DNA of 64,000 nt, from NCBI GenBank assembly GCA_035701265.1, contig DASSNU010000015.1:8393-72392 (forward strand), given 5' to 3'. Below, in pieces: positions 7,245 through 35,129 of this stretch. The notes beneath the pieces are model-generated. The model did no database searches, was not told the DNA's origin, and saw only the letters and a program-made list of their open reading frames with translations. The stretch comes from Gemmatimonadaceae bacterium (GTDB lineage Bacteria > Gemmatimonadota > Gemmatimonadetes > Gemmatimonadales > Gemmatimonadaceae). A program made the translations under genes and the position numbers. Numbering within the stretch: position 1 is the first letter of the stretch; each line of letters starts with the position of its first letter.

Positions 7245-7255
7245 GAGATGCCTAG

Positions 7256-8440
7256 CTATGCGGCGGCAACGGGATTCTCGCCCCGAAACAAACGCCCAAT
7301 TGCCTCGCGAAGCCTGCGTTCCGCCGCTGACTGATCGGGGACGAACCGCCGGCACGTTTCCGTCCAAGAGTGGGGCATCCCCGATTCCCGCAGCGCGAAC
7401 AGTCTTTCGATGAGGGCCTGTTCCTGGGTGAGCGGCGGGACGGTTCGGATCAGTGCCTCAAAGAACGTTCCTTCCCCGATCTGTTCTGGCACGACGTGAA
7501 CCGGCAGAAGCGGCCGACCGGTGGCCGCGAAGCTGGCCGATAGCGACGTATGATCCGTAATCGCGATATTGCAGCGGGCGAAGTGTACGGTCCAATCGTC
7601 TTCAGGCGAGAGCACTCTGACTCGGTCGGCGGCGCCGAAGCTGTGTAACACATCGGTCCAGTTCCGCGTGGCCCGGCGCCCTGCCCAGATGTTCGGATGA
7701 GCGCTGAGAACCACTTCGATACGGCCTTGCTGCGCGAGATCGGCAAGAGCGGGCAGGAGCCAGGTGGCATGCTGCTCTAATAGCCCGAATGGCCCCCACG
7801 TGGACATGATGGCGACAACCGGATGACACTCAGCAGGAGCGCGTTGAGCATTGGTGACCAACCTGGCCGTGCGCAAGTCGCCCGCTGCCACGATGCGACC
7901 CCGATACGAGGGGATGCGGGCAAGTGCCTCTGCAACGGCCTCGTCGCCGATATCCACCATCAAATCGTACACGGGGCGCCCGTCCGCCCAGAAGATACGC
8001 CGCTCGTCATAATAGTAGCTCCACCCCCGAACCGGCCTCGAGCGAACAGGGCCATGTGGCACGATGATGCGGCGCGCGTACGGATCGAAGCGAGCTGGAG
8101 CGTGATCCGCGAGCAGGATGTAATCGAAGGCTGCCACGCGCGCGCGCACGTCACTCAGAACTCTGAGTCCAAGAGCTCGGCAGCTCTGTCGAAGCTCGGC
8201 CGGCGCCGTGGCGAAGCCGTCCACGTGTGCGACATCCCGTACGAGCTCCCAGAGGAGCGCGACATAGTCGTACATCAGCCTGTTCTGAGCGACCACCAGC
8301 ACCCGCGCCGCCCGCTGTGTAGCGCTTCTTCTCCCCCGCCGCCCGATGAACGCGAGTGTGTTCGCCGCTTCGTACAACCTGCGCTTTAGCAGCAACCGCG
8401 CCGGCGCCACAGGCTCTAGATGAGTGCCCATCTTCGACAT
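7256..8440 (-). CDS. Hypothetical protein, weakly TagB/TagF-like (CDP-glycerol glycerophosphotransferase / capsule biosynthesis fold)
   Basis: The ORF has good codon bias. VVLSAHPNIW and CNIAITDHTSLSASFAATGRPLL resemble the TagF-family HP and ITDYSS...KP motifs. The start is taken at MSKMGTH (8440), just after the upstream stop at 8466. Confidence 0.4.
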   Translation of the reverse strand: MSKMGTHLEPVAPARLLLKRRLYEAANTLAFIGRRGRRSATQRAARVLVVAQNRLMYDYVALLWELVRDVAHVDGFATAPAELRQSCRALGLRVLSDVRARVAAFDYILLADHAPARFDPYARRIIVPHGPVRSRPVRGWSYYYDERRIFWADGRPVYDLMVDIGDEAVAEALARIPSYRGRIVAAGDLRTARLVTNAQRAPAECHPVVAIMSTWGPFGLLEQHATWLLPALADLAQQGRIEVVLSAHPNIWAGRRATRNWTDVLHSFGAADRVRVLSPEDDWTVHFARCNIAITDHTSLSASFAATGRPLLPVHVVPEQIGEGTFFEALIRTVPPLTQEQALIERLFALRESGMPHSWTETCRRFVPDQSAAERRLREAIGRLFRGENPVAAA

Positions 8441-8465
8441 CCTGGAGGTGCCCAACGGCCACGGG

Positions 8466-9341
8466 TCACTGTTCGTAGCCCCACGTGCGTGCTTGCTGAG
8501 CCACCATCGTCCAGAGTCGTTGTTGTGTAGCACGCGGCATCTTGTGTCGCCAATCCTCCGCGCGCGCTGAGGTGACGAACCGTGCGGCGATCTCGCCTAC
8601 GAACGACGGCCGATCGGACGACGCGAACTCCGCCACCTGCGCACCCACGGAGCGCGGATCCTTCACCACGTCTTCGTATCGCACCGTAAGCGCAGTGTAA
8701 CCGTTGGCGATGGCGCCCTCGATGCACTGCATTTCCCGACACCACAATTCCGCTGCCAAGGTTAGATGATCTTCGTCGGAGGCGGCCAAGGCATTCGGTG
8801 TTTCACCGCCGCGGAACCACAGTGGCGTGTGCGGCCACCATTGCACCCGAGTCAAGGAGCGTGCAACCGCAAGTGGGTGCCTGACGACGTGGAGAAAACG
8901 GACATCTACGTCCGGCAGACTCGCGAGGACGCGGATCCGTCGGCCGTTCCGCGTGTTCTTGTTGAGGAACACGCGATTCCCTCGGGCGAGCTTCCGAATT
9001 GCGCGAGAGACACGCTCCACTTCCGCGCTGGAAATGTCATTCGGAGCCAATTCACCCGTCGTCGCGCCCGCAAACCTCGGTAGCTGCCGATCCCACCATA
9101 CGTATGCCTCCGATGGTGATAGCCAGCGGGAGCGCCTCTTCCCGTGCGCCATGCGCGTCGCATGATCATGAACCGCGATGCGGTTGATGAGTCGACTCAC
9201 ACCGACATCAGCCTCCACACGACTGATCCAACGGAGATTCGGCGATACGGCGAGCATGTCGTACACCATCGTCGTGCCGGACCGGCCGACTCCGATGACG
9301 AAAACTGCGCGCGCGATTCCTCGGTGTCGCGACACTCTCAA
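8466..9341 (-). CDS. Sulfotransferase-family protein
   Basis: 291-aa ORF. VFVIGVGRSGTTMVYDML matches the 5'-PSB P-loop of PAPS-dependent sulfotransferases. A downstream RxxxS-like region reads VRHPLAVARSL. Confidence 0.7.
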   Translation of the reverse strand: MRVSRHRGIARAVFVIGVGRSGTTMVYDMLAVSPNLRWISRVEADVGVSRLINRIAVHDHATRMAHGKRRSRWLSPSEAYVWWDRQLPRFAGATTGELAPNDISSAEVERVSRAIRKLARGNRVFLNKNTRNGRRIRVLASLPDVDVRFLHVVRHPLAVARSLTRVQWWPHTPLWFRGGETPNALAASDEDHLTLAAELWCREMQCIEGAIANGYTALTVRYEDVVKDPRSVGAQVAEFASSDRPSFVGEIAARFVTSARAEDWRHKMPRATQQRLWTMVAQQARTWGYEQ

Positions 9342-10345
9342 TGACCCTTCAGTCGAAACGCCGTACGGAAGACGGTGGATACCGATGGGGCAGCGCCGGG
9401 CGCGCCAAGGAATCTATGACGCCGGGCGAGTCCATCCACCACCGCCAAAGTCCCATACGCCAGTGCTTTCCATGCTGCACGCGGCCGGATCGGAATAGAG
9501 AGCAGCGGTTTGGCAATTCCGCGAAGGGCTCCCTGGAGTACCGCGATCCGGGATGAACCGAAGCGCGTCTGCAGGGAAATCAAGTTGCGGAGCCCGTAGT
9601 AACGCCTCAGCGTCGGCAGGGATTCGACCAGTAGGCGGGGGTGCTGGTGAAGACGAACGGACTTCTCAGGTCCCAACACACGATCATCTTCCAGGGACAA
9701 GAGAGTCCACCCTTGCGCCCTCAAGTGCATGCCGAGACCAAGCTCCTCGAACCCCCAAAACATGGTCTGCACCCAATCCGGTAGGTCCAGCAGAGCTGCG
9801 AGACGATAGACGGGGCAGTATCCACCATGGAGCGAGCTGACCTCTACCACGGCCTCTGTTGGTAGCTTCTCTGGGCGCTTCGTCAGCATTCTCCTCGTGT
9901 CAAAGACCGACCCACGATGGCCAACCCCTGCAATCCGCCGCCCGCCCAGTTTTGCCTCGGCGTCCAACAATGCCCGCACAGCGCGCTCGACGCACTGTCT
10001 ATCCCGGAACGGGTCGTCGTCGTCCAATAGAACGACAAGCTGATTCTGAATATCGGATGTCGTCGCGAGGTATTCCGCGGCCAGGGGGATCGCGCCAGCG
10101 GGTCCAAGATTCTTCTGGGTCCTGATCACGTGGATTCTGCTTGCAAGCGGCAGCGCAGTTGGATCGAATGGATCAGTTCCGACATCCACCACGACAAACG
10201 TGTTTGGCGTCAGAGTTTGGTCGACGCAACTCTGTACAACCTCGCACGCGAGATGCGGGCGATTGTGCGTTACCAACACGCCGGTGAGGATGAGCTGTTG
10301 CACGTTCCTCGCTGCGATGGCACCCGTTCCGTTGCTCTGGAGCAC
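9338..10345 (-). CDS. GT2-family glycosyltransferase
   Basis: 335-aa ORF with LTGVLVTHNRPHLACEVVQSCVDQT, VVVDVGTD and VLLDDDDPF (a DxD region). It starts at a GTG. A 4-nt overlap couples it to the sulfotransferase gene. Confidence 0.7.
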   Translation of the reverse strand: MLQSNGTGAIAARNVQQLILTGVLVTHNRPHLACEVVQSCVDQTLTPNTFVVVDVGTDPFDPTALPLASRIHVIRTQKNLGPAGAIPLAAEYLATTSDIQNQLVVLLDDDDPFRDRQCVERAVRALLDAEAKLGGRRIAGVGHRGSVFDTRRMLTKRPEKLPTEAVVEVSSLHGGYCPVYRLAALLDLPDWVQTMFWGFEELGLGMHLRAQGWTLLSLEDDRVLGPEKSVRLHQHPRLLVESLPTLRRYYGLRNLISLQTRFGSSRIAVLQGALRGIAKPLLSIPIRPRAAWKALAYGTLAVVDGLARRHRFLGAPGAAPSVSTVFRTAFRLKGH

Positions 10346-10628
10346 CCGTTATTGCTGATTACGCAACCGCTGCACGCAGCACCGCCTGTGGCGTCATGTC
10401 CTCGGGCATCCGTAGATTGCCCAGCCATACGGGTGCCTGCGTAAGTACCATCGCACATTGGGACGGTGCAAACGTTTTCGGAAGCCGCACCGAACATGAG
10501 CCGCAGCACCGGCTGGTGGGATATTCCGCAACTGGTGCAAAGTTGACGTTCCGGAGGGCGGAGGCCCACCGACACTTCGACCAGCAGCCTTTTTCTGCGC
10601 CATCTTAGAGACGACTCAAGGAGTGAGC

Positions 10629-11333
10629 ATGCGTTTCGTCGTTACCGGCACCGGGCGATCTGGTACGGGATACGCCGCGAAGCTTTTCAACGCAGCCGGA
10701 CTCAGGTGCGGCCACGAAGATGTCTTTACAGACAAACCTGGCCTATGGGATTCGGCGGCCCCGCGCCAAGGGCTCGTCGCACGGGCAAAGGAGCCACTTG
10801 GGCGTGCCAAGGAGGAGCTGCGCCGACGGCGCACGCACTTCGAAGGAGATGCGTCTTGGATGGCCGTGCCGCGTCTGGCAAGATTCAAGGGCGTGTCCTT
10901 CCTGCAGCTCCGCCATCCTATCCCCGTCATTAGGAGCTTTATGGGGACGAAGTTCTTCTCGAATCCACTTGAACATCGCGCGCAACGCCGATTTGCGAGT
11001 GCACATTTTGAAATTACCGGCGACGATATTCGCGACGCCATGCGGTGGTGGACCTTCTGGAACGGCCTCGCAGCTGCTCATGCCACCATGGTTTATCGCC
11101 TCGAAGATATGGGCGAGCCGCTGTTCACTGAAATCTTGCGTAAGCTGGGCGTCGAGACGCCGGCCGACCGCGCGCGCGTTGCGCTAAGTACGGTCGCCGG
11201 CGGCGTGAACTCCTCACGAGAGCGAGGGATTACTCCAGGTGCGATCACGTTCGAAGATCTACCAGATGGTGAAGACAAGGCTGAGCTATTCCGAGCGGCC
11301 GTCGCGTGGGGATACGACCCGGAGGACAGCTAG
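10629..11333 (+). CDS. P-loop protein, possibly a second sulfotransferase-like enzyme
   Basis: MRFVVTGTGRSGTGYAAKLF resembles the sulfotransferase PSB loop. ATG 10629 is preceded by AAGGAG with a 5-nt spacer; the track start at GTG 10623 is less likely. It is the only plus-strand gene in the left arm. Confidence 0.45.
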   Translation: MRFVVTGTGRSGTGYAAKLFNAAGLRCGHEDVFTDKPGLWDSAAPRQGLVARAKEPLGRAKEELRRRRTHFEGDASWMAVPRLARFKGVSFLQLRHPIPVIRSFMGTKFFSNPLEHRAQRRFASAHFEITGDDIRDAMRWWTFWNGLAAAHATMVYRLEDMGEPLFTEILRKLGVETPADRARVALSTVAGGVNSSRERGITPGAITFEDLPDGEDKAELFRAAVAWGYDPEDS

Positions 11334-11475
11334 GTTCTGCGCGTGGTGGCCGGAACTTCAACAGATGTCGCGGCGGTAGCCTGTAGTTGGTGGCCAACGC
11401 GGTGGGCCGCTTGAGCACGCGGTTCTGAGGCGGCCAAGTCCCGAGCGCTTCCAGACCACCGGCGTTGCGGCACGT

Positions 11476-13332
11476 CTACGCCGCCCCTCCTGCCATTGCA
11501 CGGAATACCGAGCTCGAGCCTATCAATTCGTCGTACGTTCCCGACTGCACGATGCGTCCCTTGTCCAGCATATAGATCGCGTCGCAGTCCCGGACGGAAC
11601 TGAGCCGGTGCGCGATCATGACGAGCGTCTTGGCACGTGCGATGTTGTGAATCGCCTCCATGACAGCAGCCTCGGTGATCCCGTCCAGCGCACTCGTTGC
11701 CTCATCGAAGATGATGAGCTCCGGATCGTTGTAGAGTGCACGGGCGATTCCGATGCGCTGCCGCTGTCCACCACTCAAGCGGACGCCCCGCTCCCCCACC
11801 ACCGTATGATACCCGTCGGCAAGCGAGCCGACCGCCTCATGCAGGTTGGCGATCTTCGCGGCACGCTCCACAGCGGCCATGTCGATTTCATCGTCCGGCA
11901 TTCCGAACGCGATGTTTCTCGCGAGCGTGTCGTCACACAAAAAAATGTGTTGCGGGACGTAGCCGACGAGCCGTTTCCATCCCGGAAGCATCGCGGCGTT
12001 CACGGGCGCCCCATCCACCAGGACCTGCCCCTCCTGTGGCACAAGCAACCCGAGGAGGACATCCACGAGCGTGGTTTTGCCAGACCCGGTCGCGCCGACG
12101 AGCGCAATCTGGCCGTTCTTCGGCACCACAAGGTCAATACCTTCGAGTGCGGGCGTGCTGCATTCGGGATACCGAAAGGTCACCTTGCGCAGCTCGATCG
12201 CTCGCGTGAACGCGAGCGCTGACGCTCCCTTCTGCGGTAATGCGATTCTCTCCGGCACAGAGGCGACCGGTGGGTGCCGGTTCGGCTCCAGCAGGTCAGC
12301 GTGCAACACATGCAACGCCGCTCGATTGAAGCGCAACGACGTCACGCCGAGGAACACCTGCTGCAGCGCAGGCATCATCCTGTATCCAGCGAACGCGAAG
12401 AGGCTCACGATCGGCAGTATGTGCGTCACGTTCCGCCCAGCCATCAGGGACAGCAGGATAATGACCAGCGCGCCCCCGAACGCCACGGGCTCCATAACGT
12501 AGCGAGGAACCGCCGACACAATCTGATTGTTCGCCATGTGCCGGGAGAACAGCGCTGATGGTCCGGTGAACCGCCGGAGGAAATGATCCTCGCGCCCCGT
12601 CACTTTGAGTTCTTTGATGCCACCGAATGCTTCCGCGGCCGTCTTGAACCGGAGTGTGTTTGCGTGCAGGCGCTCGCGGCCAATGCGCCCCTGACGCCGA
12701 CGTACCCCGAGATAGATCACACCGTACGCGCCGCCGAACCCGAGACCGATGGTAACCGCCAATCGCACATCCACGACAACAAGCAATGCGATAAGAGCGG
12801 TCACCATTACTGCTCTTGCCAACGCATTCAACACCGGGATCAGAATGCCGGTGATAACGGAGTTTACCTCACCCAGAATGTTCTTCGAGAGATCCGACGT
12901 GTTGCAGTTGAGGAAGTAGACGTATGGCTGCGACAAGTACTTGCGGAGTAGGCGTACGGAGAGCGAATGGTTCTTGTTCCAGACCAAGCGAAGCGTCAGC
13001 CACGTCGTGAGCGCTGACAGTACGTTGTTCACCAGAATGAGGATGAGGACGCCGAAGCCAACCGCGATCACGAAATGCTGCATGTTCGTGAAATGGAACA
13101 TGGCATAGACGCGACTGAGCACGCGATGACGTGTCACGACGGTCGGGTCCGCGACCAGCGCCATGAACGGCATGATCGACGCCACCCCGGCCATCTGAGC
13201 GAGCGCGGTGACGACGATGACGCACAAGAGCGCCAATAACCCAAGGCGCTCTCGACCCTCGAAAAGGTCCAGGATCTTGCGGAGGTCGGCTAGCATGCCG
13301 GCCCCGGATTTGGTCGTCGCATGCCGGACCAT
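11476..13332 (-). CDS. ABC exporter, fused permease + ATPase (MsbA/type I exporter-like)
   Basis: The N-terminal half has six hydrophobic segments. The C-terminal NBD carries Walker A (GATGSGKTT), the signature motif (LSGGQRQRIGIARAL) and Walker B (LIIFDEATSALD). An alternative start is ATG 13296 (MLADLRKIL). Confidence 0.9.
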   Translation of the reverse strand: MVRHATTKSGAGMLADLRKILDLFEGRERLGLLALLCVIVVTALAQMAGVASIMPFMALVADPTVVTRHRVLSRVYAMFHFTNMQHFVIAVGFGVLILILVNNVLSALTTWLTLRLVWNKNHSLSVRLLRKYLSQPYVYFLNCNTSDLSKNILGEVNSVITGILIPVLNALARAVMVTALIALLVVVDVRLAVTIGLGFGGAYGVIYLGVRRRQGRIGRERLHANTLRFKTAAEAFGGIKELKVTGREDHFLRRFTGPSALFSRHMANNQIVSAVPRYVMEPVAFGGALVIILLSLMAGRNVTHILPIVSLFAFAGYRMMPALQQVFLGVTSLRFNRAALHVLHADLLEPNRHPPVASVPERIALPQKGASALAFTRAIELRKVTFRYPECSTPALEGIDLVVPKNGQIALVGATGSGKTTLVDVLLGLLVPQEGQVLVDGAPVNAAMLPGWKRLVGYVPQHIFLCDDTLARNIAFGMPDDEIDMAAVERAAKIANLHEAVGSLADGYHTVVGERGVRLSGGQRQRIGIARALYNDPELIIFDEATSALDGITEAAVMEAIHNIARAKTLVMIAHRLSSVRDCDAIYMLDKGRIVQSGTYDELIGSSSVFRAMAGGAA

Positions 13333-13653
13333 CCCAGCGGCCGCGGAACAGCGACTGCGATCGCGGAACGGTACGTGTGAGCTCGCATGGGTGGCGGCGG
13401 TGCTGGATGCTCCGTACGCGCGGACGTGGAATGGGCTCTGAGAGGGGACGGCTCGCCGCAGAGAGGCCCCGCATCAAGCGGATGTCCACGATGGACGGGG
13501 AGACGCACTGTGGAGCAGACTGGCCCACGCATTTTGCTCTTGAATCCGAGATGTGACCGAGTGGCAGCGCGACACAGATGTGGCGGCGGGAGTGTCGGCG
13601 CACCGCGCCGCATGCTCAGCAACGATCTGGCCGCACGTGCGAACCTGTTCCCG

Positions 13654-16911: not shown

Positions 16912-17976
16912 CTACCCCTCCACCAGCGCGCGCGCGATCCGCTCCCCCGCGCGACCGTCCCACCCGTCCGGCCGCCGCGCGGTGCGGTCTCCGTGCTCCA
17001 ACGCCGCGATGGCCGGCGCGATCTTCGCCGGATCGGGGACGAGCTGGTTGGTCCCCTCGGTGATGGTGATGGGACGCTCGGTGTTCTCGCGCACCGTGAT
17101 GCACGGGATGCCGAGCGCGGTGGTCTCCTCCTGCAAACCCCCGGAATCCGTCACCACCACCGCGGCGCCCTCCACCAGGTCCACCATCTCGGGGTAGCTC
17201 ACCGGATCGAGGAGCCGCACGGCGCCGAGGGAGATCCCGCTGTCGCGGAGCCGCTGCTGCGTGCGCGGATGCGCGGGGAACACCACCGGCCGTCGCTCGG
17301 CCACCTGGCGCAGCGCGGCGGCGATCGCGGCGAGCCGCGACGGCTCGTCCACGTTCGACGGGCGGTGCAGCGTGACGACCACCGCATTGGAGTCGAGCGC
17401 GAGCGATGCGCGAAAGCCGGTGGCGCGCGCGGTGGGGAGCACGTGGAAGAGCGAGTCGATCATCACGTTCCCCACAAAGACGATCTCCTGTTCCGATTCT
17501 CCTTCGCGGCGGAGCGTCTCGCTCGCATCGCGCGAAGGCGTGAGCAGGAGACTGGCCAGCCGGTCGGTGACGATCCGGTTGATCTCCTCGGGCATGCTCC
17601 AGTCGTTGCTGCGGAGCCCCGCCTCCACGTGCGCCACGCGGAGCCCGAGCTTCACCGCCACGATCGCCGCCGCCATGGTGGAGTTCACGTCCCCGTAGAC
17701 CACCACCCAATCGGGACGCCGCTCGGCGAGCACCGGCTCGATGCGCTCCATGATGCGCGCGGTCTGCACCGCGTGCGACGCCGAGCCCACCTCCAGGTTG
17801 TGATCGGGCGCGGGGATGCCGAGATCGCGCAGGAATCCGCCCGACATCTCGTCGTCGTAGTGCTGCCCGGTGTGCACGATGATCTGCCGCGCGCCGAGCT
17901 CGCGCGCCGCGCGGTGCACGGGGGCGAGCTTGGGAAAGTTGGGGCGCGCGCCGACGACGTGAAGGAGTGTGGGCAT
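16912..17976 (-). CDS. wecB: UDP-N-acetylglucosamine 2-epimerase (non-hydrolysing)
   Basis: 354 aa. VVGARPNFPKLAPV, HTGQHYDDEMS, VVVYGDVNSTMAAAIVA, VAHVEAGLRS and PEEINR are hallmark WecB/MnaA motifs. Confidence 0.92.
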   Translation of the reverse strand: MPTLLHVVGARPNFPKLAPVHRAARELGARQIIVHTGQHYDDEMSGGFLRDLGIPAPDHNLEVGSASHAVQTARIMERIEPVLAERRPDWVVVYGDVNSTMAAAIVAVKLGLRVAHVEAGLRSNDWSMPEEINRIVTDRLASLLLTPSRDASETLRREGESEQEIVFVGNVMIDSLFHVLPTARATGFRASLALDSNAVVVTLHRPSNVDEPSRLAAIAAALRQVAERRPVVFPAHPRTQQRLRDSGISLGAVRLLDPVSYPEMVDLVEGAAVVVTDSGGLQEETTALGIPCITVRENTERPITITEGTNQLVPDPAKIAPAIAALEHGDRTARRPDGWDGRAGERIARALVEG

Positions 17977-18194
17977 CGTGTGAGAGATAAGCTAACGGAG
18001 GGGAGATCTCGCTTCATCGAGACGCGGCGGGACGACGGGAGGCAACGGGGACGTGCGCGCTCCCCTCCCCCGCCAACGCGACATCGGTGCGAGGGAAGGA
18101 TGCCGGCCTCCCCGATCCGATGCCATTCCCCGCCGTTGTAGCCGCCAGCCTGAGGTACGGTCACCGGCACCCGCGCCGTGGCCCACCCTCCCAC

Positions 18195-18223
18195 ATTGAC
18201 GACTATGGTACAGCGTACTATAT
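18195..18223 (+). promoter_or_regulatory. Near-consensus sigma70-type promoter: TTGACG - 17 nt - TATATT
   Basis: TTGACG at 18195-18200, a 17-nt spacer, and TATATT at 18218-18223. It sits in an AT-rich patch just upstream of the conserved part of the toxin gene. The spacer contains ATGGTAC-agc-GTACTAT, an imperfect inverted repeat. Confidence 0.5.
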
Positions 18224-18231
18224 TCTACGGC

Positions 18232-18573
18232 GTGCCCGACTGGCACGGGATCGAGTTCATCCATCTGCCCAGCTATCGCCGGTCTGCCGAAGTGCTGATC
18301 GATGATGAGGAGCAGCGGACGCTCGAGGAGCGGCTGGTGCACGATCCGGAGACCGGGCCGGTAATGCCCGGCACGGGCGGCGTGCGCAAGCTTCGCGTCG
18401 CGATGCCCGGGCGCGGGAGACGCGGCGGCGCGAGAGTGATCTACTACTATCGCAGAAGCGCGCAGCGGATCTACCTGATCGTCGCGTACGCCAAGGGTCG
18501 GAAAGACGATCTGACCCCTGCGGAATGCGCGACGATGCGGAGGCTCACTACGCTACTCGAAGGGGAGACATGA
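18232..18573 (+). CDS. RelE/HigB-superfamily toxin (the GGxRKxR...RGGxRvIYYY type)
   Basis: GTGGVRKLRVAMPGRGRRGGARVIYYYRRSAQRIYLIVAYAKGRKDDLTPAE matches the conserved core of this toxin family. The track start (18178) lies upstream of the predicted promoter. GTG 18232 gives the family-typical length of about 113 aa. Confidence 0.75.
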   Translation: MPDWHGIEFIHLPSYRRSAEVLIDDEEQRTLEERLVHDPETGPVMPGTGGVRKLRVAMPGRGRRGGARVIYYYRRSAQRIYLIVAYAKGRKDDLTPAECATMRRLTTLLEGET

Positions 18574-18962
18574 CCACGCGCACGGTGGGAGAGGAGATCA
18601 TCGCGGGGCTGGAGGAAGCGCTCGCCTACGAGCGCGGCGAGCTGAAGGGGGTGAAGGTGACGCGCGCCACGCTCGCCACGCAACGCGCGGGCGTCGCGCC
18701 CGCGCCGAGCGTGGGCGCGCAGGGAATCATGGCGCTGCGCGAGCGGCTGCGGCTGTCGCAGCCCGTGTTCGCGGCGGCGCTCAACGTGAGCCCGGAGACG
18801 GTGAAGAAGTGGGAGCAGGGGACGCGCGATCCGGACGGCGCCGCGCTCCGTCTGCTCGAGCTGGCCGACGCTCACCCCGAGTGGATCATCGAGCGGATCA
18901 CCGCCGCGCCAGCGCGTACGCGATCACCGCGCGGGACAGCCCGACATTCTCGCCGTCGATGA
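18570..18962 (+). CDS. XRE-type HTH antitoxin (HigA-like) partner of the upstream toxin
   Basis: ATG 18570 overlaps the toxin stop (ATGA). The HTH reads LRERLRLSQPVFAAALNVSPETVKKWEQGTRDPDGAALRLL. The toxin-first gene order is typical of HigBA modules. The C-terminal tail extends into the duplicated segment described in the findings. Confidence 0.78.
   Translation: MTTRTVGEEIIAGLEEALAYERGELKGVKVTRATLATQRAGVAPAPSVGAQGIMALRERLRLSQPVFAAALNVSPETVKKWEQGTRDPDGAALRLLELADAHPEWIIERITAAPARTRSPRGTARHSRRR
18897..18933. repeat. Left copy of a 37-bp perfect direct repeat (atcaccgccgcgccagcgcgtacgcgatcaccgcgcg)
   Basis: Identical to 20029-20065. Weaker similarity extends upstream (18841-18896 versus 19939-20028). 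The minus strand of this copy encodes ...SRAVIAYALARR*, a duplicate of the C-terminus of the gene ending at 20030. Confidence 0.85.
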
Positions 18963-19019
18963 GCTCGTCCAGAAGCTCGCATCCGGATCGGCGAATCGCG
19001 TGCGAACGCGAGAACGTCC

Positions 19020-19271
19020 TTACGGATCGCACGTCTCGTCCCGTTCCCACCATCTGTCGGGCAAGTCGCGTTGTGCTATCTCGCACGGCACGAAGTCAAT
19101 GCGCACGACCGCATCCAGCGCCCGGGCGAGCTCGGCGAGAGTGGACAACCGTGGGTTGGCCGTGCCGGATTCGAGGCGCGCGATGGCGGGCTGCCTTGTG
19201 CCGAGTTGCTCCGCCAGCGCCTCCTGACTGAGACCGCGGCGCTGCCGGAGCCGCAGGACCGCTTCTGCCAC
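19020..19271 (-). CDS. XRE-type HTH antitoxin (second HigA-like protein)
   Basis: VAEAVLRLRQRRGLSQEALAEQLGTRQPAIARLESGTANPRLSTLAELARALD is a canonical Cro/C1 HTH. The start is taken at GTG 19271. The longer track ORF (155 aa) overlaps the toxin gene and has a low-complexity, basic N-terminus. Confidence 0.7.
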   Translation of the reverse strand: MAEAVLRLRQRRGLSQEALAEQLGTRQPAIARLESGTANPRLSTLAELARALDAVVRIDFVPCEIAQRDLPDRWWERDETCDP

Positions 19272-19326
19272 ATCGAACGAGGGCTGGCGCAGCCACTCCT
19301 TCAGGAAGGAAGCGCTACCGAGCCGC

Positions 19327-19764
19327 TCAGACAGGCGGGATCTCGACCTCTTGGAGCGAGTACGCGCCGCGCTCGAGGGCACCGATGAGCGTCGAGCAGC
19401 GGACGAGGTCTTGCGCGTCGCGTTTGTCACGTTTTTTCGAGACGGAATGGAGGAAGACGATACGCCGGTGTTCCCGGTCGGGTACAAAGAAGTACAATCG
19501 CCAGGGGCTGGGCTTGGCTTTCAGGACGTAGACGCCAACCGATCGCCCCTCGAACGTGCACTGGCCTAGCTTCTCGTAGCGCGGGCGCCCCTTCCCGCGT
19601 TCCGGAGGACATCCAGCCAGCCGCAGCAGGCGAAGCTGCCGCAGGATGGTGGCGAGCTCCCGATCGTTCGCGTCGCAGTAGGCGTCGCTGGATGGACGCC
19701 TGGTCCCCCGCACCACTTCGAGCAGTTGCCAACCGCCCGCCCGATCGGGAGGGGTATAACACAT
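19327..19764 (-). CDS. Gp49/HigB-like RelE-superfamily toxin
   Basis: GVYVLKAKPSPWRLYFFVPDREHRRIVFLHSVSKKRDKRDAQDLVRCSTL matches the y-R-l-y-F...iv-llh-f-KK pattern of phage Gp49-like toxins. It is followed by an HTH gene. Confidence 0.65.
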   Translation of the reverse strand: MCYTPPDRAGGWQLLEVVRGTRRPSSDAYCDANDRELATILRQLRLLRLAGCPPERGKGRPRYEKLGQCTFEGRSVGVYVLKAKPSPWRLYFFVPDREHRRIVFLHSVSKKRDKRDAQDLVRCSTLIGALERGAYSLQEVEIPPV

Positions 19765-19776
19765 ATGTTATACCCC
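19751..19776. promoter_or_regulatory. Perfect 9-bp palindrome GGGGTATAA-N8-TTATACCCC overlapping the toxin start codon (candidate operator)
   Basis: Left arm 19751-19759 and right arm 19768-19776; the ATG (minus strand, 19764) lies in the spacer. A possible promoter sits just upstream on the minus strand: TTGCGA, 17 nt, CATATT. Confidence 0.5.
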
Positions 19777-20028
19777 CGGAATATGACGAGGCTCGGCTGT
19801 GATCGCAACCGGAGCGCCTGCGGGCAGTAGTTGCGCGGCCATGACTGCGCACACTGGGGGCAGTCGAGGCACACCGCACCATCATTCGATTGGCGGGAAG
19901 AGCAGAAGTCGGCGGAAGTGATCCGCGCCGGCAGGGCCCCGCGCTCAAGCCTACTCGCGCTGGCCGACGCTCACCAGGACCGAACGGGTCGAGCGCGTTA
20001 GCGAGCGAATGATCGCGCCATCGAGCGC

Positions 20029-20065
20029 ATCACCGCCGCGCCAGCGCGTACGCGATCACCGCGCG
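20029..20065. repeat. Right copy of the 37-bp perfect direct repeat
   Basis: Identical to 18897-18933. It overlaps the true 3' end of the nucleotidyltransferase gene. The flanking 19939-20028 is a degenerate copy of the 3' end of the HigA-like gene (LLALADAH... versus LLELADAH...). Confidence 0.85.
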
Positions 20066-21043
20066 CGGCGAGCCCTCGGCCAGCGCGCCGCCCGCGGCGA
20101 TGAGCCGGCGCGCGGCGTGGCGCCCCTGCACGCGGACGGCGATCTCCGCGCGGAGCCGCCCCACGCGCCGCACCGCGCGCCATGACGCCTCCGGCACGCG
20201 CGCAGCGGGCACGCGCGCGTCGAGCACGTGCGCCGCGCCCAGGAGCGTCTCCATGGCGCGGCGCTCCACGCTCGCGTGCACGAACGCCGAGACGCGCGCG
20301 AGGTCCACCTGCGGATCGCTCACCACTGCGGCCACGTCGATCACGTCGCGCAGCGTGTAGCGGAGCATCCGGCTGGCGGTCGCGTGCGCGAGCGTGTGCT
20401 CGGCCAGCGCGGCCGGCGAGGGGAGCCACACCGGCGCGCCGCCAACCTCCACCTCACGCGCGTCCTGCCAGATGTCGACGCGCGCTCCGTCGGCGCCGTG
20501 CCGCCGCGCGAGGCGCGTGTGAATCTCCACCGGCAGCCAGCCAGGGAGCGCGATGGCGTCCAGGTGGTGATGCCCGGGGATGTGTTCCACCACGGCGTAT
20601 CCCATCTCGCACTGCAGCGCGCGGTGCAGCAGCTCGGCGCCCGCGCGATCGTCGACCAGGAGGTCGATGTCATCCATGGTGCGCGAGGCCGCGGTGTGCG
20701 CGCCGGCCAGGAGACGCGCGGCGCCCTTGAGCGCCATCACGCGCACGCCGCATCGCGCAGCCAGCATGGCGATGCGCGCGAGCTGCGGCGCCACGCGGAG
20801 CGACTGGCCGAGCGCGAGCTGCGCGTCGTCCTTGAGCAGGGCGCGCACGTGCGCGGGAAGATCCAGCGCGTGTCCCGCGTCGAGCATCCACCCCCACACC
20901 GCGGGTCCGCACCGCTCGTAGCGCAGCACGCGGCGCCACCACGACGCGTCGGCGTCCGATGCGCGGCGCAGCACGGTGGCACCCGGCTGCTCGCGGCGCA
21001 CGGCGCTCGAGAGGAGATCGTGAATGGCGGAGGCGATGGACAT
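20030..21043 (-). CDS. Uncharacterised nucleotidyltransferase (NTP_transf_5 / PF14907-like)
   Basis: VRVMALKGAARLLAGAHTAASRTMDDIDLLVDDRAGAELLHRAL matches the KG...R..DiDlLV core of this family. The start is at ATG 21043 (MSIASAIH). The upstream part of the track ORF is Arg/Ser-rich junk. Confidence 0.7.
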   Translation of the reverse strand: MSIASAIHDLLSSAVRREQPGATVLRRASDADASWWRRVLRYERCGPAVWGWMLDAGHALDLPAHVRALLKDDAQLALGQSLRVAPQLARIAMLAARCGVRVMALKGAARLLAGAHTAASRTMDDIDLLVDDRAGAELLHRALQCEMGYAVVEHIPGHHHLDAIALPGWLPVEIHTRLARRHGADGARVDIWQDAREVEVGGAPVWLPSPAALAEHTLAHATASRMLRYTLRDVIDVAAVVSDPQVDLARVSAFVHASVERRAMETLLGAAHVLDARVPAARVPEASWRAVRRVGRLRAEIAVRVQGRHAARRLIAAGGALAEGSPRAVIAYALARR

Positions 21044-21074
21044 CGTGCGCGCGGAGTGCGGCGGTGCGCGAGCG

Positions 21075-21938
21075 CTACGGAACGAGGAACGCCGGCTGGC
21101 GATCGTCCTGCGAGCGCGCGAGCAGCACGCGGCGGCGGTGATCGGACACCGTGTAGGCCACCAGATCGGCGGCGCCGCTCGTGGGGACGAGCGCGCCCAC
21201 GCAGTACGACGCATCGCACGCGGGCTCTCCCATGTCCTGCGACTCGATCGGGAAAGCGTCCGTGGCACCGGTGCCCAGCGTCACCACGTGCAGCGCGTTC
21301 CCCACGCCGGGCGTGTAGACGATGCGCGTGCCGTCGGCGGTCCATGCCGGCTCGAAAGCGCCGCTCGCTTCGTGCGTCACCTGCTCGGCCGTTCCTCCGG
21401 CGGCGGCGACGACGAACACCTGCGACGTCCCCGTGCTCACCGAGGCGAAGGCGATCATCGAGCCATCGGGGCTCCACGCCGGCGACTGCTCCGGCACCGA
21501 CGCCGCGGATCCGGTGGCAAGGGCAGCCACGTTGGCGCCGCTCGCGTCCATCACGTACACGCGAACGATCCCGCTCCGATCGCTGGCGAACGCAACGCGT
21601 GAGCCGTCGGGTGAGAGGGCGGGAGCGAAGTCCGCCGCGGCGTTGGTGGTGAGACGCTGCACGTTCGCGCCGTCGTTCGCGGCAGTGTAGATCTCGCTGT
21701 TGCCATCACGATCGGAGGTGAAGACGAGCTTTCCGGCGGCGCTGTGCGGCTCGCTCTCGTTGCTCGTGGTCTCCGTGATGGGTGTGACGACGCCGCTCTC
21801 CGCATCGAGCGAGTAGAGCTGCGAGTGGCCGGCATCGTCGGTGGAGACGAAGACGATGGGCGCGAACGGCGGGAATGGCGGATCGCCGCCCGGACCGGCG
21901 CCGTCGCTGCACGCCAGGAGCACGGCGGCGGCGAACAT
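21075..21938 (-). CDS. TolB-like (PD40/WD40-like) beta-propeller lipoprotein, paralog 1
   Basis: MFAAAVLLAC is a lipobox-type signal. Repeated motifs follow: SPDGSRVAFASDRSG, VYVMDASGANV, SPDGSMIAFASV. Confidence 0.78.
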   Translation of the reverse strand: MFAAAVLLACSDGAGPGGDPPFPPFAPIVFVSTDDAGHSQLYSLDAESGVVTPITETTSNESEPHSAAGKLVFTSDRDGNSEIYTAANDGANVQRLTTNAAADFAPALSPDGSRVAFASDRSGIVRVYVMDASGANVAALATGSAASVPEQSPAWSPDGSMIAFASVSTGTSQVFVVAAAGGTAEQVTHEASGAFEPAWTADGTRIVYTPGVGNALHVVTLGTGATDAFPIESQDMGEPACDASYCVGALVPTSGAADLVAYTVSDHRRRVLLARSQDDRQPAFLVP

Positions 21939-22015
21939 CGCGATTCCCGCGCGCGAGCGTGCGACGCGCCATCCAGCGCCGCGTCCGCGACGCTCGTGCA
22001 ACGGTGCGCGATGCG

Positions 22016-22855
22016 TTACGCGAGACACGGTTCCTCCGCCACCGCTTCGGCGAGCGTGTGGGCCACGCGGTGTAGTTGCGCCGGCGAGTGCTCGAGCAGG
22101 CGCACCGGCACCGACTGCACCATGTGCGCGAGCAGGCGCAGGTGCGCGGCGGCGTGCCGGTCGTTCACCATCACCCAGCGCGACTGCCGCACGAGCGCGG
22201 CGAGTGCGTCGAGGGGGCGGAGGTGGTGCACGGCGTCGTGCGCGGCGAAGCGGACGAAGATGATCGCGGCGAGCGAAGCGGAGCGCGCGGTGTGCGCCGT
22301 CACCGGCATGCGGCGGCGCGGGTCGGCGACGTCGGCGGCGTGCGCCCAGCGTGCCAGCTCGGGAAAGTGATCGATGAGGGCGTCGCTCACGTGCAGCGGC
22401 TCGCGCCACGCGTGACAGCGTACCGCGTCCCCGTCCCGCTCCACCACCACGCCGTCATCGCCCAGCACGCCCCATCCCGCGCGCGCGAGCGCGTAGGTGA
22501 GCGTGGATTTTCCGCTGCAGCTGTCGCCGGCGAGGAGCCAGGCACGTCCGGTGGGATCCACCACGCCGGCGGCGTGCACGTGGTAGCGTCCGCGAGAGCG
22601 CAGCCGCTGGATGGCACCCGCGCGCGCGAGCACCTGTCGCGCTGCGCGCGATGCGCTCTCGAAGCCGGTTCCCCTCTCGAGCCGTCCGCCGCGAACGTGC
22701 AGCTCGGCGCCTTCCGTATCGTGACGGAGGTGCACCGTGTCGCCGCGCACGAGCCCGGTGACGGGGCCGAACTTCCAGGGGAGATCGGCGCCGCGTGGAG
22801 TGATGCTCTGTGCGGTGCGGGTGCGGCGAGCGGCTGCGCGCGACTGAGCGCGCAC
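22016..22855 (-). CDS. HPr kinase/phosphorylase C-terminal-domain-like P-loop protein (HprK-related kinase)
   Basis: HAAGVVDPTGRAWLLAGDSCSGKSTLTYALARAGWGVLGDDGVVV matches the HprK catalytic-domain P-loop region. GTG 22855 overlaps the TAG of the upstream small ORF (TAGTG). Upstream of that point, G/C-ending codons in this frame fall to 23/42. Confidence 0.72.
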   Translation of the reverse strand: MRAQSRAAARRTRTAQSITPRGADLPWKFGPVTGLVRGDTVHLRHDTEGAELHVRGGRLERGTGFESASRAARQVLARAGAIQRLRSRGRYHVHAAGVVDPTGRAWLLAGDSCSGKSTLTYALARAGWGVLGDDGVVVERDGDAVRCHAWREPLHVSDALIDHFPELARWAHAADVADPRRRMPVTAHTARSASLAAIIFVRFAAHDAVHHLRPLDALAALVRQSRWVMVNDRHAAAHLRLLAHMVQSVPVRLLEHSPAQLHRVAHTLAEAVAEEPCLA

Positions 22856-23022
22856 TAGCAGGGCGGATCGGGGGGTACGCCGCTGCACGTCTGGCCGGCC
22901 TGCAGGAGATAGAGCCCGGTGAAACCGGAGACGTTGAGCGTGAGCTCGGTGAGCGATGCGTGTCGCACCAGCGCCGGGGGGCACCAGGGGCGTGGCCTCT
23001 TCTCGATTGTACTGATTGTCAT
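22855..23022 (-). CDS. 55-aa small protein, candidate modified-peptide precursor: MTISTIEKRPRPWCPPALVRHASLTELTLNVSGFTGLYLLQAGQTCSGVPPDPPC
   Basis: 45 of 55 codons end in G/C, against 23 of 42 in the overlapping kinase frame. A GGGGAAG Shine-Dalgarno-like element lies 6 nt before the ATG. The stop overlaps the kinase start. I recognised no homolog. Confidence 0.5.
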   Translation of the reverse strand: MTISTIEKRPRPWCPPALVRHASLTELTLNVSGFTGLYLLQAGQTCSGVPPDPPC

Positions 23023-23146
23023 GAGGTCTTCCCCTGTGGTGGGCGCCGCGCCCCGAGCAAGAACTGCTCCGATCACGTATCTGACGATCCAGGGCCCCTT
23101 TGGAGTAACAGTCTGGGTGTCACACCAGGGGGTGAGATGTGAAGGC

Positions 23147-23181
23147 GCCTGGCAGGGGCCGGTACTGCGCCCCCACCAGGC
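23147..23181 (-). terminator. GC-rich stem-loop between TolB-like paralog 2 and the small ORF (possible terminator or attenuator; no U-tract)
   Basis: Arms gcctggcaggggc (23147-23159) and gcccccaccaggc (23169-23181) pair 6+5 bp around a 2-nt mismatch, with a 9-nt loop. Confidence 0.25.
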
Positions 23182-23208
23182 GGTCCCCCCATTCGAGTCG
23201 AGCTATGA

Positions 23209-24234
23209 CTAGCGGTGCAGGATCGCGGGCTGGCGGGCGGTGCCGAAGGCCGGTACGACGTCGGCCGGTGTGCCAGCGGCTGCCGCGTAGAAGTCCACGT
23301 CGGAGCCCGCTGCGGTGGTGACCGCGGCCACGCACCCATCCGCCGAGCACGACGGCTCGCTCACGCCGAGCGTCGCGGTGGCGTATTCGGCCACGGCTTG
23401 CGTGGAAACGTTCACGGAGCGAAGGCGCAGCCCACCCGCGTCGGCCACGTAGACGATCGAGCTGCCGTCGGCGCTCCACGTGGGGAGGAAGGCGCCGTTG
23501 AACTCGTGCGTCACCTGCACGGCGGATCCGCCGGCGGCGGGGACGACGAACACCTGCGACGTGCCGGTGCGGACGGAGGTGAAGGCGATCATCGAGCCGT
23601 CGGGGCTCCAGGCGGGCGCGTCTTCCGGCGTCCAGCTCTGCGAGCCGGTGGCGAGCTCCACCTGGTTGGCGCCGGTGCTGTCCATCACGTAGAGGCGTGC
23701 GGTGCCGCTCCGGTTGCTCACGAAGGCCACGTGCGCGCCGTCGGGGGAGAGCGCCGCCTGGTCGTTGGTGCCGGCGGTGGTGAGCTGCGCGACCGACTGG
23801 CCGGCGACATCGGTGATGAAGATCTGCGCAACGCCGTTCCGATCGGAGGTGAAGACGATCCGTCCCGCTGCGCTACTCGGCGCGAAGTCGTTCGCGTTGC
23901 TCGTCATGAGCCGCGAGACGGTGCCGCCGCTGTAGATGTAGAGCTGGTCGCTCCCGCTGGCGTTGGAGACGAAGGCGAACTCGAGCGATGCAGGCGCCAC
24001 GGTGGAGTCCTGCTTCGGCTTCTTGCTGCCCTTTTCACCGCCGTTGGACGGCGAGTTGCCGCCCTTGGCGAGCTCGCCCGTCTGGGTGAGTCCGGTGCCG
24101 AGCTGGTTGGAGCAGGCGCTTGCGCTGGCGATCAGTGTGACGATTGCAATCGCGAGCACCTGGCGGCGCGCGCGTGAGCCGTTGGTGCGCGCCGAGCGAT
24201 TGTCCGTCGCTGCACTCTGGCGGGAGTTCGACAT
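23209..24234 (-). CDS. TolB-like (PD40) beta-propeller lipoprotein, paralog 2
   Basis: The signal plus lipobox reads RRQVLAIAIVTLIASASAC. Repeats include SPDGAHVAFVSNRSG, LYVMDSTGANQ and SPDGSMIAFTSVRTGTSQVFVV. It is collinear with paralog 1, including the C-terminal C-x4-C and RQPA motifs. The start is at ATG 24234. Confidence 0.78.
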   Translation of the reverse strand: MSNSRQSAATDNRSARTNGSRARRQVLAIAIVTLIASASACSNQLGTGLTQTGELAKGGNSPSNGGEKGSKKPKQDSTVAPASLEFAFVSNASGSDQLYIYSGGTVSRLMTSNANDFAPSSAAGRIVFTSDRNGVAQIFITDVAGQSVAQLTTAGTNDQAALSPDGAHVAFVSNRSGTARLYVMDSTGANQVELATGSQSWTPEDAPAWSPDGSMIAFTSVRTGTSQVFVVPAAGGSAVQVTHEFNGAFLPTWSADGSSIVYVADAGGLRLRSVNVSTQAVAEYATATLGVSEPSCSADGCVAAVTTAAGSDVDFYAAAAGTPADVVPAFGTARQPAILHR

Positions 24235-24768
24235 GGGGGGGTCTCCTGGAGTGGTTCGTCGTGCTGCTGTTTGGATCGAGCGTGGCCCGATCGCGCCTTT
24301 CTGACCCAAAAGACTGGCCCAGTTTCCAAACTGTCACATTATTTGTCACTCATGAGGTCTAGCTGATATTGGAAAGGAATTTGTGGGCATAGTGACTGAA
24401 AACGTGCGGTTTGGCGGGGTGTCGGCGCGTTTTGAGACGGGATGGGCGAGCGCCCGCGATTCCGGGGGTGATCTATCGGAGCGATCGGACTGGCGGCGGT
24501 GATACGATCGTCTTCCAGACTTCACCGCCCTGTCCATTTCCACAGGGCCGCCAAGTACCACGGGGCCGCCAAGCGCGCACGGCGGCACATGCCGCCATCC
24601 GATCGACCGTCTCCTCATCCACTCTCGACACCTCCCACTTTGAATGCCGCGTTCGGCAGGCTTCGACGCCGGGCGATGCAGATTTCAACGCCGCGTTCGG
24701 CAGGCGGCTGGTGGTGCCATTCCGTCCTCCACTCGACCCTCCTCTCCTGCAGCACCATGTAATCAAGT

Positions 24769-30211: not shown

Positions 30212-31735
30212 ATGCGCCGACCCTCCCTGGGCGCCGAAGCCGAAGCAGGCGCCATCCATCTGCGAAAGTCCCTCCCCCTGGCCGCCGCCATCCGCTGGAC
30301 TCCGGATGACGGGCACGGCGACCCGGCGTGGGACCGCTACGATGTGTTCATCACGCAGGATGCCCTGCGCGGGGTGGACCGGCACGTGTGGACCGCCCCC
30401 GACCGGGAGCTGCTCGGCTTTCTGCTGGGCGACCTGTACGAGTGTCCGGAGAGTGGGGAGGTCTACGTCATCGTGCACGCCGTGGTGCGCACGGAGCACG
30501 AGATCGACGAGGAGGCGGTGGAGCAGATTCCGGAGCAGGTGTGGCGGGACACGATGACGGCAGTGCGGACGCGGCGGGCGCGGGTGGTCGGTTGGTATCG
30601 CAGTGCGCCGTACGTCGGCCAGGCGCCCACCGCGGCGGACGTGGCCACGCACCGGTCGCGCTTTCCCGAGCCGTGGCAGGTGGGGCTGGTGGTGGCCACC
30701 TCCGGTCCGCCGGCGGGCGCGGTCTTTCGCGTGGTCGAGGGAGCGGCCGGTGGGGGAAGCGCGGCTCGTGGGGTCGCAGCCGCCGGCGCGGGCACCGGCG
30801 CCGGTGCCGGCGCGGCGGGTGGCGAGGGGAGCGACTCTCTGGGCGCTGCGGCTTCGCTGGGTGTGCTGGGCGGTTCGCGCGGGATCTTCTCTCCTTTCCT
30901 GGAGCTGCTGCACAAGGATGCGCTCCCTGAGGGAGACGGTCCCAAGTCGAGCGTGATCGACTGGGAGAACTACGTGGCCGGGGAGCCGGTGCGCGTGGTG
31001 GAGAGCGTGCAGAAGGTGCGGACCGCTGCCGCCGGGCGGAGCGCGACGGGCGCCACAGGTGCCGCGGGTGCGGGCGGCGCCGTTCCGGCCGCGGTGGCGC
31101 GCGGGACGATCACCGGTTCGCCGGGGATTCTGATCCCGACCGGTGCCGATCATCCTGTCGTTCCGCCGAGTGCTCCCCAGCGGCGTCGTCCGATCTTTCC
31201 GGTCATCGGATACGTGCTGGCGACGATCGCCGTGCTGGTGGGTGCGGTGATGCTGGCGAGGCGCGTGGTGCCCGCGCTCGAACCCGACGGGGGTGGGGCG
31301 CGGCGCGTGACTGCGGCGCACGAGAGCGGCGCGGGCGCGGTACCGGGCGCGCCGGCTGGCACGGGCGCACAGCCGGGAGCACCGGGGCTCGGCGCGACGC
31401 CGGGAGTGGCAGGTGGCACCCCCGGTGCGGCGCTCCAGCCGTCCGGCGCGAGCGCGGCGGCCATTCGTCGTTTCTCGCTGGCGGCCGACTCGCTGTCGCG
31501 CGCGGTGACGAACTACCAGGCGCGCGCGGAGGATTTTCGTCTGCACCGGATCGCGTGCTCGCAGCTCGCCACCGGCTACCGGTTGGCGGACGAGCAGTTT
31601 CAGACCGTAGCGAGTGTGTATGGCGAGGTGCGCGATTCTCTCCTGGCGCCGCAGCACGGGCGATACCAGCAGATCGTGGACAGCGTGGCGGTGCTGAACC
31701 AGCAGTTCGACGCCTCGGGCTGTCCGCGACCGTAG
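30212..31735 (+). CDS. Hypothetical protein: N-terminal degenerate MPN/JAB-like domain, low-complexity linker, one TM segment, C-terminal domain of unknown function
   Basis: RELLGFLLGDLYE...VVGWYRSAPYVG aligns to the MPN E...GWYHSHP pattern but lacks both His residues. The TM segment is IFPVIGYVLATIAVLVGAVMLA. GAGG lies 4 nt before the ATG, and TATACT lies upstream. Confidence 0.5.
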   Translation: MRRPSLGAEAEAGAIHLRKSLPLAAAIRWTPDDGHGDPAWDRYDVFITQDALRGVDRHVWTAPDRELLGFLLGDLYECPESGEVYVIVHAVVRTEHEIDEEAVEQIPEQVWRDTMTAVRTRRARVVGWYRSAPYVGQAPTAADVATHRSRFPEPWQVGLVVATSGPPAGAVFRVVEGAAGGGSAARGVAAAGAGTGAGAGAAGGEGSDSLGAAASLGVLGGSRGIFSPFLELLHKDALPEGDGPKSSVIDWENYVAGEPVRVVESVQKVRTAAAGRSATGATGAAGAGGAVPAAVARGTITGSPGILIPTGADHPVVPPSAPQRRRPIFPVIGYVLATIAVLVGAVMLARRVVPALEPDGGGARRVTAAHESGAGAVPGAPAGTGAQPGAPGLGATPGVAGGTPGAALQPSGASAAAIRRFSLAADSLSRAVTNYQARAEDFRLHRIACSQLATGYRLADEQFQTVASVYGEVRDSLLAPQHGRYQQIVDSVAVLNQQFDASGCPRP

Positions 31736-31898
31736 CGCGGAGCGTCGCGCCGGCGCGTGGTGGCGTGCGGAGCCGGCGTCGCGGCGGCATTCTGCGATTG
31801 CGTCGCGGCGGCATTCTGCGATTGCGTCGCGACGGCATTCTGCGGCGGAGCCGTGGCGGTAGCGCGGCGGTAGTCGCTTCCTGCACAGTGGGCTTGCG

Positions 31899-34903: not shown

Positions 34904-35129
34904 GGCGGCGACCAACCTCCGAGATCACGGAATCGACTATTGCCGGCGCCGCTTGGGCGGGCGCGGGCGCATGTGTGGTGGGCGGCCACGAGCTCCGGAC
35001 GCCGCCGGAGGCAGGCTCATTCCGCACACCATCATGAGATGTTCGCGTTCGGTGTTGGTGACCTGCCTGGGTCGACGCATTGCCGCTGCCACCGCGCCGG
35101 CGCTCGCACGACCGCCGGCATGCAACGCG

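Follow-up and report, generated by a model that had tools for sequence, protein, structure and literature searches.

Insertion with long target duplication has been described for restriction-modification units (Nobusato et al. 2000, Gene 259:99; Furuta, Abe and Kobayashi 2010, PMC2853133) and is characterized by an insert of less than 20 kb, a duplication of more than 30 bp, the absence of mobility genes and repeats that are unique in the genome (PMC2853133). In the published Haemophilus cases, 46-bp repeats overlap the 3' end of a gene (PMC2853133), and the authors proposed that the cargo contributes by breaking DNA itself (PMC2853133; PMC3874152). Here we analyze a small module, predicted to encode a type II toxin-antitoxin (TA) pair, that lies between two copies of a duplicated gene junction in a soil Gemmatimonadaceae metagenome-assembled genome (G000, 3.69-Mb assembly). 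The module is located in a stretch of 64,000 nt with 70% G+C (the window, whose positions are used as coordinates throughout) on a 372-kb contig. With moderate confidence, we explain it as a foreign TA unit that was put in place by insertion with long target duplication, at the site where a higA-like antitoxin gene and a nucleotidyltransferase (NTase) gene converged and overlapped. No paper applying this mode of insertion to a classical TA pair was found in the literature.

TA cassettes of chromosomal integrons, such as those of Vibrio cholerae, are about 1 kb long, extend from promoter to stop codon and lie between repeats of about 100 nt. Cis-mobilizable elements (CIMEs) are decayed integrative elements that keep their attL and attR sites without an integrase (PMC5704250). 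The locus described here shares features with each of these classes and with the chaperone-dependent HigBA systems, and is compared with them below.

The module is bounded by a direct repeat. The 37-mer ATCACCGCCGCGCCAGCGCGTACGCGATCACCGCGCG is present at 18897-18933 and again, identically, at 20029-20065, as the initial annotation of this DNA had noted; self-comparison shows that the full block of identity (the core) is 47 nt long with a single mismatch (18887-18933 versus 20019-20065, 46/47 matching). Upstream of the core is a degenerate arm (18805-18886 on the left, 19904-20018 on the right) in which 57/70 positions are identical (81%), with small indels. This degenerate similarity had also been recognized in the initial annotation, with starts at 18841 and 19939 that made it too short. 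Its insertion of about 34 nt in the right copy corresponds to 43 nt standing in place of 10 nt of the left arm, which makes the right copy of the duplicated segment 33 nt longer than the left (162 versus 129 nt). Neither a native NTase 3' flank nor a templated copy from elsewhere found support as the source of these extra 43 nt.

The arms are significantly similar even when the core is left out (alignment score 59 versus 17.6 ± 2.8 for shuffled sequences; 0/500 shuffles reach 59). To the right of the core, comparison of 18934 onward with 20066 onward gave no significant similarity (score 17, shuffles 17.1); the duplicated segment therefore ends sharply at 18933 and 20065, and does not extend into the NTase gene beyond the core. 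Across the 3.69-Mb assembly these are the only two sites that match the 37-mer with three or fewer mismatches, so it is not a dispersed repeat, and chance alone would yield about 9e-8 exact 37-mer pairs. For a 29-nt part of the core, the metagenome_contigs and genome_contigs collections contained no exact match.

Each copy of the segment completes a different gene. The left arm (18805-18886, +) is functional 3' coding sequence of the resident helix-turn-helix (HTH) antitoxin gene, higA-like (18570-18962, +; HTH_31/HTH_3, E about 1e-7), and the left core copy (18887-18933, +) encodes part of the higA tail. On the minus strand, the same core copy holds the disused last 11 codons and stop codon of the NTase gene, in a frame that reads ...SRAVIAYALARR*. 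The functional last 11 NTase codons and stop are found in the right core copy (20019-20065, +), together with 10 nt of the NTase 3' flank. The NTase itself (20030-21043, −; PF14907, NTP_transf_5, E 2e-24) is the last gene of a minus-strand block and ends in ...PRAVIAYALARR*, with its stop codon at 20030-20032 within the right core. In the right arm (19904-20018, +), the higA 3' end has decayed into a non-functional copy that is interrupted by a premature stop at 19999-20001; the plus frame of the right copy, representing the dead higA C-terminus, reads ...LLALADAHQDRTGRAR*. Thus, higA is completed by the left copy and the NTase gene by the right copy, and the opposite reading of each copy is dead. 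This assignment agrees with that of the initial annotation, whose quoted peptides for the functional and the dead gene ends are all present in the translations of the open reading frames (ORFs).

It had further been claimed that both genes stayed intact, which holds for the NTase and for the conserved part of higA. The higA-like ORF passes through the left core to a stop at 18962, and its last 29 nt (the last 9 codons) derive from the insert; the extreme tail of the protein is thus altered. Family homologues of the higA-like protein align only to residues about 108-123 of 130, and the 37-mer starts at codon 110, so it codes for an unconserved tail.

Between the two copies lies an insert of 970 bp (18934-19903) with no ORF besides those of the toxin and the antitoxin. 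The toxin (19327-19764, −) has a predicted RelE/HigB-like fold. Its AlphaFold2 model (mean pLDDT 83.6) has the HigB/RelE toxins 6af4, 1wmi, 9g12 and 7nbu as best Foldseek matches (E about 1e-3, probability 1.00, TM 0.5-0.73), while at the sequence level the toxin resembles solved RelE/HigB toxins only marginally (E 0.73). Homologues of the toxin were found at 73-44% identity. The name 'Gp49-like', given in the initial annotation, corresponds to a sub-threshold Pfam match (Gp49, E 0.008). The XRE antitoxin gene (19020-19382, −; HTH_3, E 3.3e-14) has no ATG, and starts with a GTG at 19382 that overlaps the toxin 3' end by 56 nt. On the basis of the structural model, the HTH match of the antitoxin and the overlap of the two genes, we assign the pair a predicted function as a type II TA system of the RelE/HigB superfamily.

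A 1.4-kb metagenome contig (L028) carries a homologous module in the same palindrome-toxin-antitoxin order beside a different upstream gene; blastn aligns window positions 19022-19851 with L028 512-1341 at 74.6% DNA identity. The palindrome, read directly from the sequence, is perfect in the window (GGGGTATAA-N8-TTATACCCC, 19751-19776) and lies over the toxin start; a similar palindrome (GGTATAACATATGCGTTATGCC) is found at the same position in L028, and this element is likely to be an operator. Within the upstream region of the module (19765-19903, −), homology to L028 stops at 19851, and the stretch 19852-19903 has no significant similarity to that contig. The G+C content of the insert is 0.63-0.66, compared with 0.69-0.76 in its flanks. 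G001, the only other known genome of the same genus and our comparator for the locus, does not carry the module, although it has both the wecB and the NTase flanks. The match in another context, the absence from G001 and the lower G+C content together support the earlier claim that a TA unit of about 1 kb was inserted, and by these sequence comparisons the module is a foreign, transferable unit.

The module may once have been larger. The antitoxin homologue of L028 runs at least 34 residues beyond the stop of the window antitoxin, and the spacer between the left core and the antitoxin stop (18934-19019) has a weak match to the L028 antitoxin tail, which is marginal against shuffles (score 21 versus 14.8 ± 2.4; 29/1000 shuffles reach 21). 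The spacer, which has no second copy in the genome, may be what is left, after decay, of an antitoxin tail that was once longer. Distant homologues, with a toxin 44% identical, are part of toxin-antitoxin-SecB operons beside a DNA methylase. Among the relatives of the module, a SecB gene is present only on the distant contig L029, and in the window the antitoxin is followed by just 86 nt of insert. As in HigBA and toxin-antitoxin-chaperone (TAC) systems (e.g., M. tuberculosis HigB1-HigA1-SecB, PDB 7nbu), the toxin gene comes first, the toxin has a RelE/HigB-like fold and the antitoxin is an HTH protein; unlike in TAC systems, there is no SecB gene here and the antitoxin is without the C-terminal extension of its closest homologue. 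One possibility is that the module is a chaperone-dependent (TAC-type) system whose tail and chaperone have been lost.

The structure of the junction before insertion can be read from G001, which among 40 relatives is alone in sharing the locus. Its NTase orthologue is 67% identical to that of the window, and the next best NTase homologues are at most 50% identical. No other Gemmatimonadaceae had higA or the NTase gene next to wecB, and a search for related loci using the NTase found nothing. The parts of the window in common with G001 include wecB (16920-18071) and the NTase block (20031-24358). G001 is without higB and most of higA; a 66-nt remnant of the higA 3' end is kept, 83% identical to 18837-18902 in the left arm, and lies directly after the wecB upstream region (the two alignments overlap by 16 nt). 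From this remnant to the NTase end there is a 3.9-kb insert (L015:6591-10560, L015 being the G001 locus) that encodes a MazE-type/Doc pair, an Eco57I-like N6 methylase and a 242-aa ORF. The right core copy of G000 is homologous to the G001 NTase 3' end from 20031 onward.

The higA-remnant and NTase flanks of G001 join at a shared CACC, and when joined they are colinear with the left arm, core and right flank of G000, except for two 1-nt indels. This supports an ancestral contiguous junction at which higA and the NTase gene overlapped, and with it the proposal of the initial annotation that the two genes once converged with overlapping ends. The G001 insertion came without a long duplication, and the sequences support independent hits on the higA/NTase junction in the two species, in both of which the junction is a hot spot for defence-type genes. 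We considered whether the G001 higA remnant also carries a core copy, as an ancestral duplication would leave, and the similarity was not significant (p about 0.1). The initial annotation had looked to an empty-site comparison: a single-copy ancestral junction was recovered from the G001 flanks, but a clean empty site was found in none of the collections searched, and the G001 site is occupied by its own 3.9-kb insert.

The age of the duplication was assessed by comparing the left arm, the right arm and G001 at 49 ungapped sites. A unique change is present in the right arm at 5 sites (plus two gaps) and in the left arm at 1 site; G001 differs from both arms at 7 sites, and all three differ at 2. 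At 7 of these 15 variable sites the two arms agree and G001 stands apart; the right arm agrees with G001, and not with the left arm, at only 1. These site patterns indicate that the right arm was copied in the G000 lineage after the split from G001, rather than being an older paralogue. Most of the change is in the right arm, as expected of a dead copy. The arm and the core give different pictures of divergence. The arm pair within G000 (81% identity) is about as divergent as the arm between species (83%), while the core pair within G000 is 98% identical (46/47) compared with 77% for the core between species. With a rough Poisson clock, the probability of one or fewer core differences ranges from 0.25 (duplication one quarter as old as the species split) to 8e-5 (naive ratio).

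When set beside the restriction-modification insertions, the locus has the same small addiction-type unit, the same lack of a transposase or integrase, and a directly duplicated, unique target of tens to hundreds of bp that overlaps gene 3' ends. The cargo of toxin, antitoxin and upstream region is well under 20 kb at 970 bp, and the 47-nt core within a duplicated segment of 129/162 nt exceeds 30 bp. No tyrosine recombinase (PF00589) was found on the 372-kb contig, on which transposases and serine recombinases were not profile-searched; 970 bp leaves no room for a tyrosine-recombinase gene within the insert. The locus differs from the restriction-modification cases in its type II TA cargo, in a target that is a convergent overlap with each copy rescuing a different gene, and in the uneven divergence of the repeats. 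In addition, the published cases were defined by an empty-site genome, and none was found here.

The other classes fit less well. The features in common with CIMEs are direct repeats of about 40-60 nt, covering a gene 3' end, on both sides of a cargo without a recombinase gene. Unlike CIMEs, the element is only 1 kb long and has no known cognate integrase or parent element, and its repeat reaches into a decayed copy of a neighboring gene, which att sites do not require. The contig has no integrase that would mark an att-flanked element, and no other core copy was found in the genome or in the two public collections. The promoter-to-stop TA unit of about 1 kb, bounded by repeats of about 100 nt, recalls integron TA cassettes; however, there is no array, attC R''/R' boxes (RYYYAAC / GTTRRRY) are absent from 18880-20075, and the contig has no tyrosine recombinase, though an integron integrase was not specifically sought. 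A DNA transposon was rejected: the ends of the insert are not paired by an inverted repeat, the duplicated stretch measures 47-129 nt rather than <15 bp, and there is no further ORF.

In the explanation that we favor, about 0.97 kb of foreign DNA (18934-19903) would have entered the tail-to-tail overlap of the convergent higA (+) and NTase (−) genes. The cargo is a complete small operon, made up of a likely palindromic operator with the promoter region, a RelE/HigB-fold toxin and an XRE antitoxin. The target would have been a segment of about 129 nt that comprised the last conserved codons and the tail of higA, its final 37 nt doubling, in the opposite orientation, as the last 11 NTase codons and stop. 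This segment now forms the direct repeat around the insert, and the redundant higA half of the right copy has decayed. Entry may have occurred via host recombination or repair at the junction. In our preferred version, the 47-nt core would be the tract of exchange or of the latest homogenization, and hence younger than the arm. The 47-nt repeats would permit a precise, RecA-type loss that restores the old junction, and an addictive TA pair would be expected to select against such a loss.

Several points weigh against this explanation. One concerns divergence: the core is near-perfect, the arm is 19% diverged with indels, and between species the core is no slower to change than the arm, so a single duplication followed by uniform decay is doubtful. 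Core and arm may differ in age, and later homogenization of the core, a core that represents the tract of recombinational entry, and copies of different ages all remain as alternatives. In the only comparator, G001, the junction is occupied by another insert. The initial annotation had proposed one event that duplicated 95-125 bp and left both genes intact; this is plausible, but it is set against the uneven divergence of core and arm and the lack of an empty site. Moreover, the TA function of the cargo is predicted, and the genus is represented by two genomes only.

The sharp, near-perfect core beside a diverged arm is also the trace expected of a crossover in a shared core, as in site-specific or Campbell-type entry, which we regard as unlikely. 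A circular module that carried the right arm and core as an attP-like segment would have crossed over with the resident core, through an integrase supplied in trans or through homologous recombination across 47 nt, leaving a CIME-like remnant with attL and attR. The concept of such remnants is published (PMC5704250), and three tRNA-linked islands of G000 (described below) have att repeats of 42-62 nt, a length that the core fits, although by eye the core is unlike those repeats. The contig has no integrase, however, and neither an integrase-bearing related element nor another core copy was found in the genome or the two collections. Furthermore, the right arm is the higA end of the same lineage, which an attP site does not need, and an earlier duplication would still be required.

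Somewhat less likely again is a history of two events, which would account for both the old arm and the young core pair. In the first event higB and the 5' part of higA would have given way to the module, with the right arm surviving as an old, dead remnant next to the NTase gene; in the second, an intact higBA with the NTase end would have been re-acquired from a close relative, with a homology anchor on the wecB side and an illegitimate join at 18933/18934, placing a young allele beside the remnant. G001 does show loss of higB and 5' higA with a 66-nt 3' remnant at the same locus, and the truncated antitoxin without a SecB partner would be consistent with resident DNA having been lost at an illegitimate joint. 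Against this, the model calls for two rare events and for a donor whose locus was intact, the joint has to coincide with the very end of the segment in common with the NTase gene, and there is no independent trace of a recombination tract.

We consider it very improbable that the whole higBA segment was duplicated in tandem and that the module then replaced most of the second copy. Both repeat copies do share the ancestral arm-core junction, as this would predict, but on its left side the insert begins exactly where the repeat ends, self-comparison revealed no trace of a second higB or 5' higA, and more steps are needed than in the other models. Chance similarity, a dispersed repeat or an assembly artefact is close to refuted: high-G+C DNA yields many short spurious matches (self-comparison gave many of 14-30 nt), but so few chance pairs are expected, the genome has only the two copies, the arm is significant against shuffles, and the flanks at each copy are distinct, which a 47-nt repeat cannot create in assembly.

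If insertion with long target duplication is the correct explanation, it extends a mode known from restriction-modification units to a TA pair, in a different phylum. The advance is incremental, in that the locus adds another example of a rare, recombinase-free mode of insertion that is in print mainly for restriction-modification genes. The spread of TA modules between chromosomes without mobility genes is still poorly explained, and the locus provides a clean anatomical record of one such case: the same few bases took a different insert in a sister species, and both genes were rescued here by the duplicated junction. Such an extension argues against a mechanism that needs DNA cleavage by the cargo itself. 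The uneven divergence of core and arm is a testable clue that could point to, for example, a crossover or a conversion tract.

More tentatively, and as a conjecture that we consider rather doubtful, there could be a general route, driven by the host, by which promoter-to-stop cassettes are placed at gene ends and 40-130 nt of target are duplicated without an integrase or transposase. The route may operate in Gemmatimonadaceae and, by extension, in many prokaryotes, with TA pairs, Fic genes and others as cargo. If it exists, it could not depend on a restriction enzyme, as proposed for restriction-modification units, because the TA cargo makes no DNA break, and a near-perfect core beside a decayed arm would mark the stretch of exchange. 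The evidence consists of the TA insert, a Fic cassette in G001 and several 3'-end duplications in G000.

The G001 cassette lies at the 3' end of wecB and contains a 401-aa gene of the Fic/DOC family (L015 4120-5325, −). On either side of it stands a copy of the wecB 3' end, in direct orientation (103 nt, about 92% identity; L015:3989-4092 and 5460-5563), and the two copies are closer to each other than to G000 wecB. On sequence grounds this is a second case of a duplication-flanked insertion, at a neighboring gene. An empty site for it, with the orthologous wecB-acyltransferase arrangement, was not found. A wecB 3'-end duplication was also sought around the AbiE-like module of G000, and none was found.

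Self-comparison of G000 revealed three more duplications of gene 3' ends that flank inserts without an obvious recombinase. Their repeats are 43 nt (98% identity; L034:2049-2091 / 5760-5802), 104 nt (90%; L033:2040-2143 / 4722-4825) and 91 nt (86%; L035:2027-2117 / 5625-5714), around inserts of 3.7, 2.7 and 3.6 kb, respectively. The cargo includes an S8 peptidase-like ORF, a HEAT-repeat protein together with an uncharacterized 619-aa protein, and an FtsX-type permease with a PadR regulator. No empty sites for these inserts were found in G001, where synteny is too broken to tell.

G000 also has three islands of 6-14 kb that are flanked by 42-62-nt repeats of tRNA 3' ends (C11:3313-3374/9347-9406; C13:2889-2933/10996-11040; C2:71581-71624 and 13.9 kb further on). 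In two of them (C13 and C2) a tyrosine-recombinase gene lies between the repeats. These islands are ordinary integrative elements, in contrast to the TA insert.

Upstream of the resident higA-like gene is its partner toxin gene (higB/RelE-like; 18205-18573, +; Pfam RelE PF06296, E 7.6e-10), with which it forms the first TA module of the region. Further upstream of the wecB region, about 10 kb of the window (3800-13600) has a lower G+C content (0.60-0.65 versus about 0.70) and contains long minus-strand ORFs without the usual high third-position G+C; this part of the polysaccharide locus was probably acquired by horizontal transfer. Elsewhere in G000, a repeat scan located a CRISPR array on contig C22 (about 31300-35400) with repeats that contain GGTTCATCCCCGCGTGCGCGGGGAAC.

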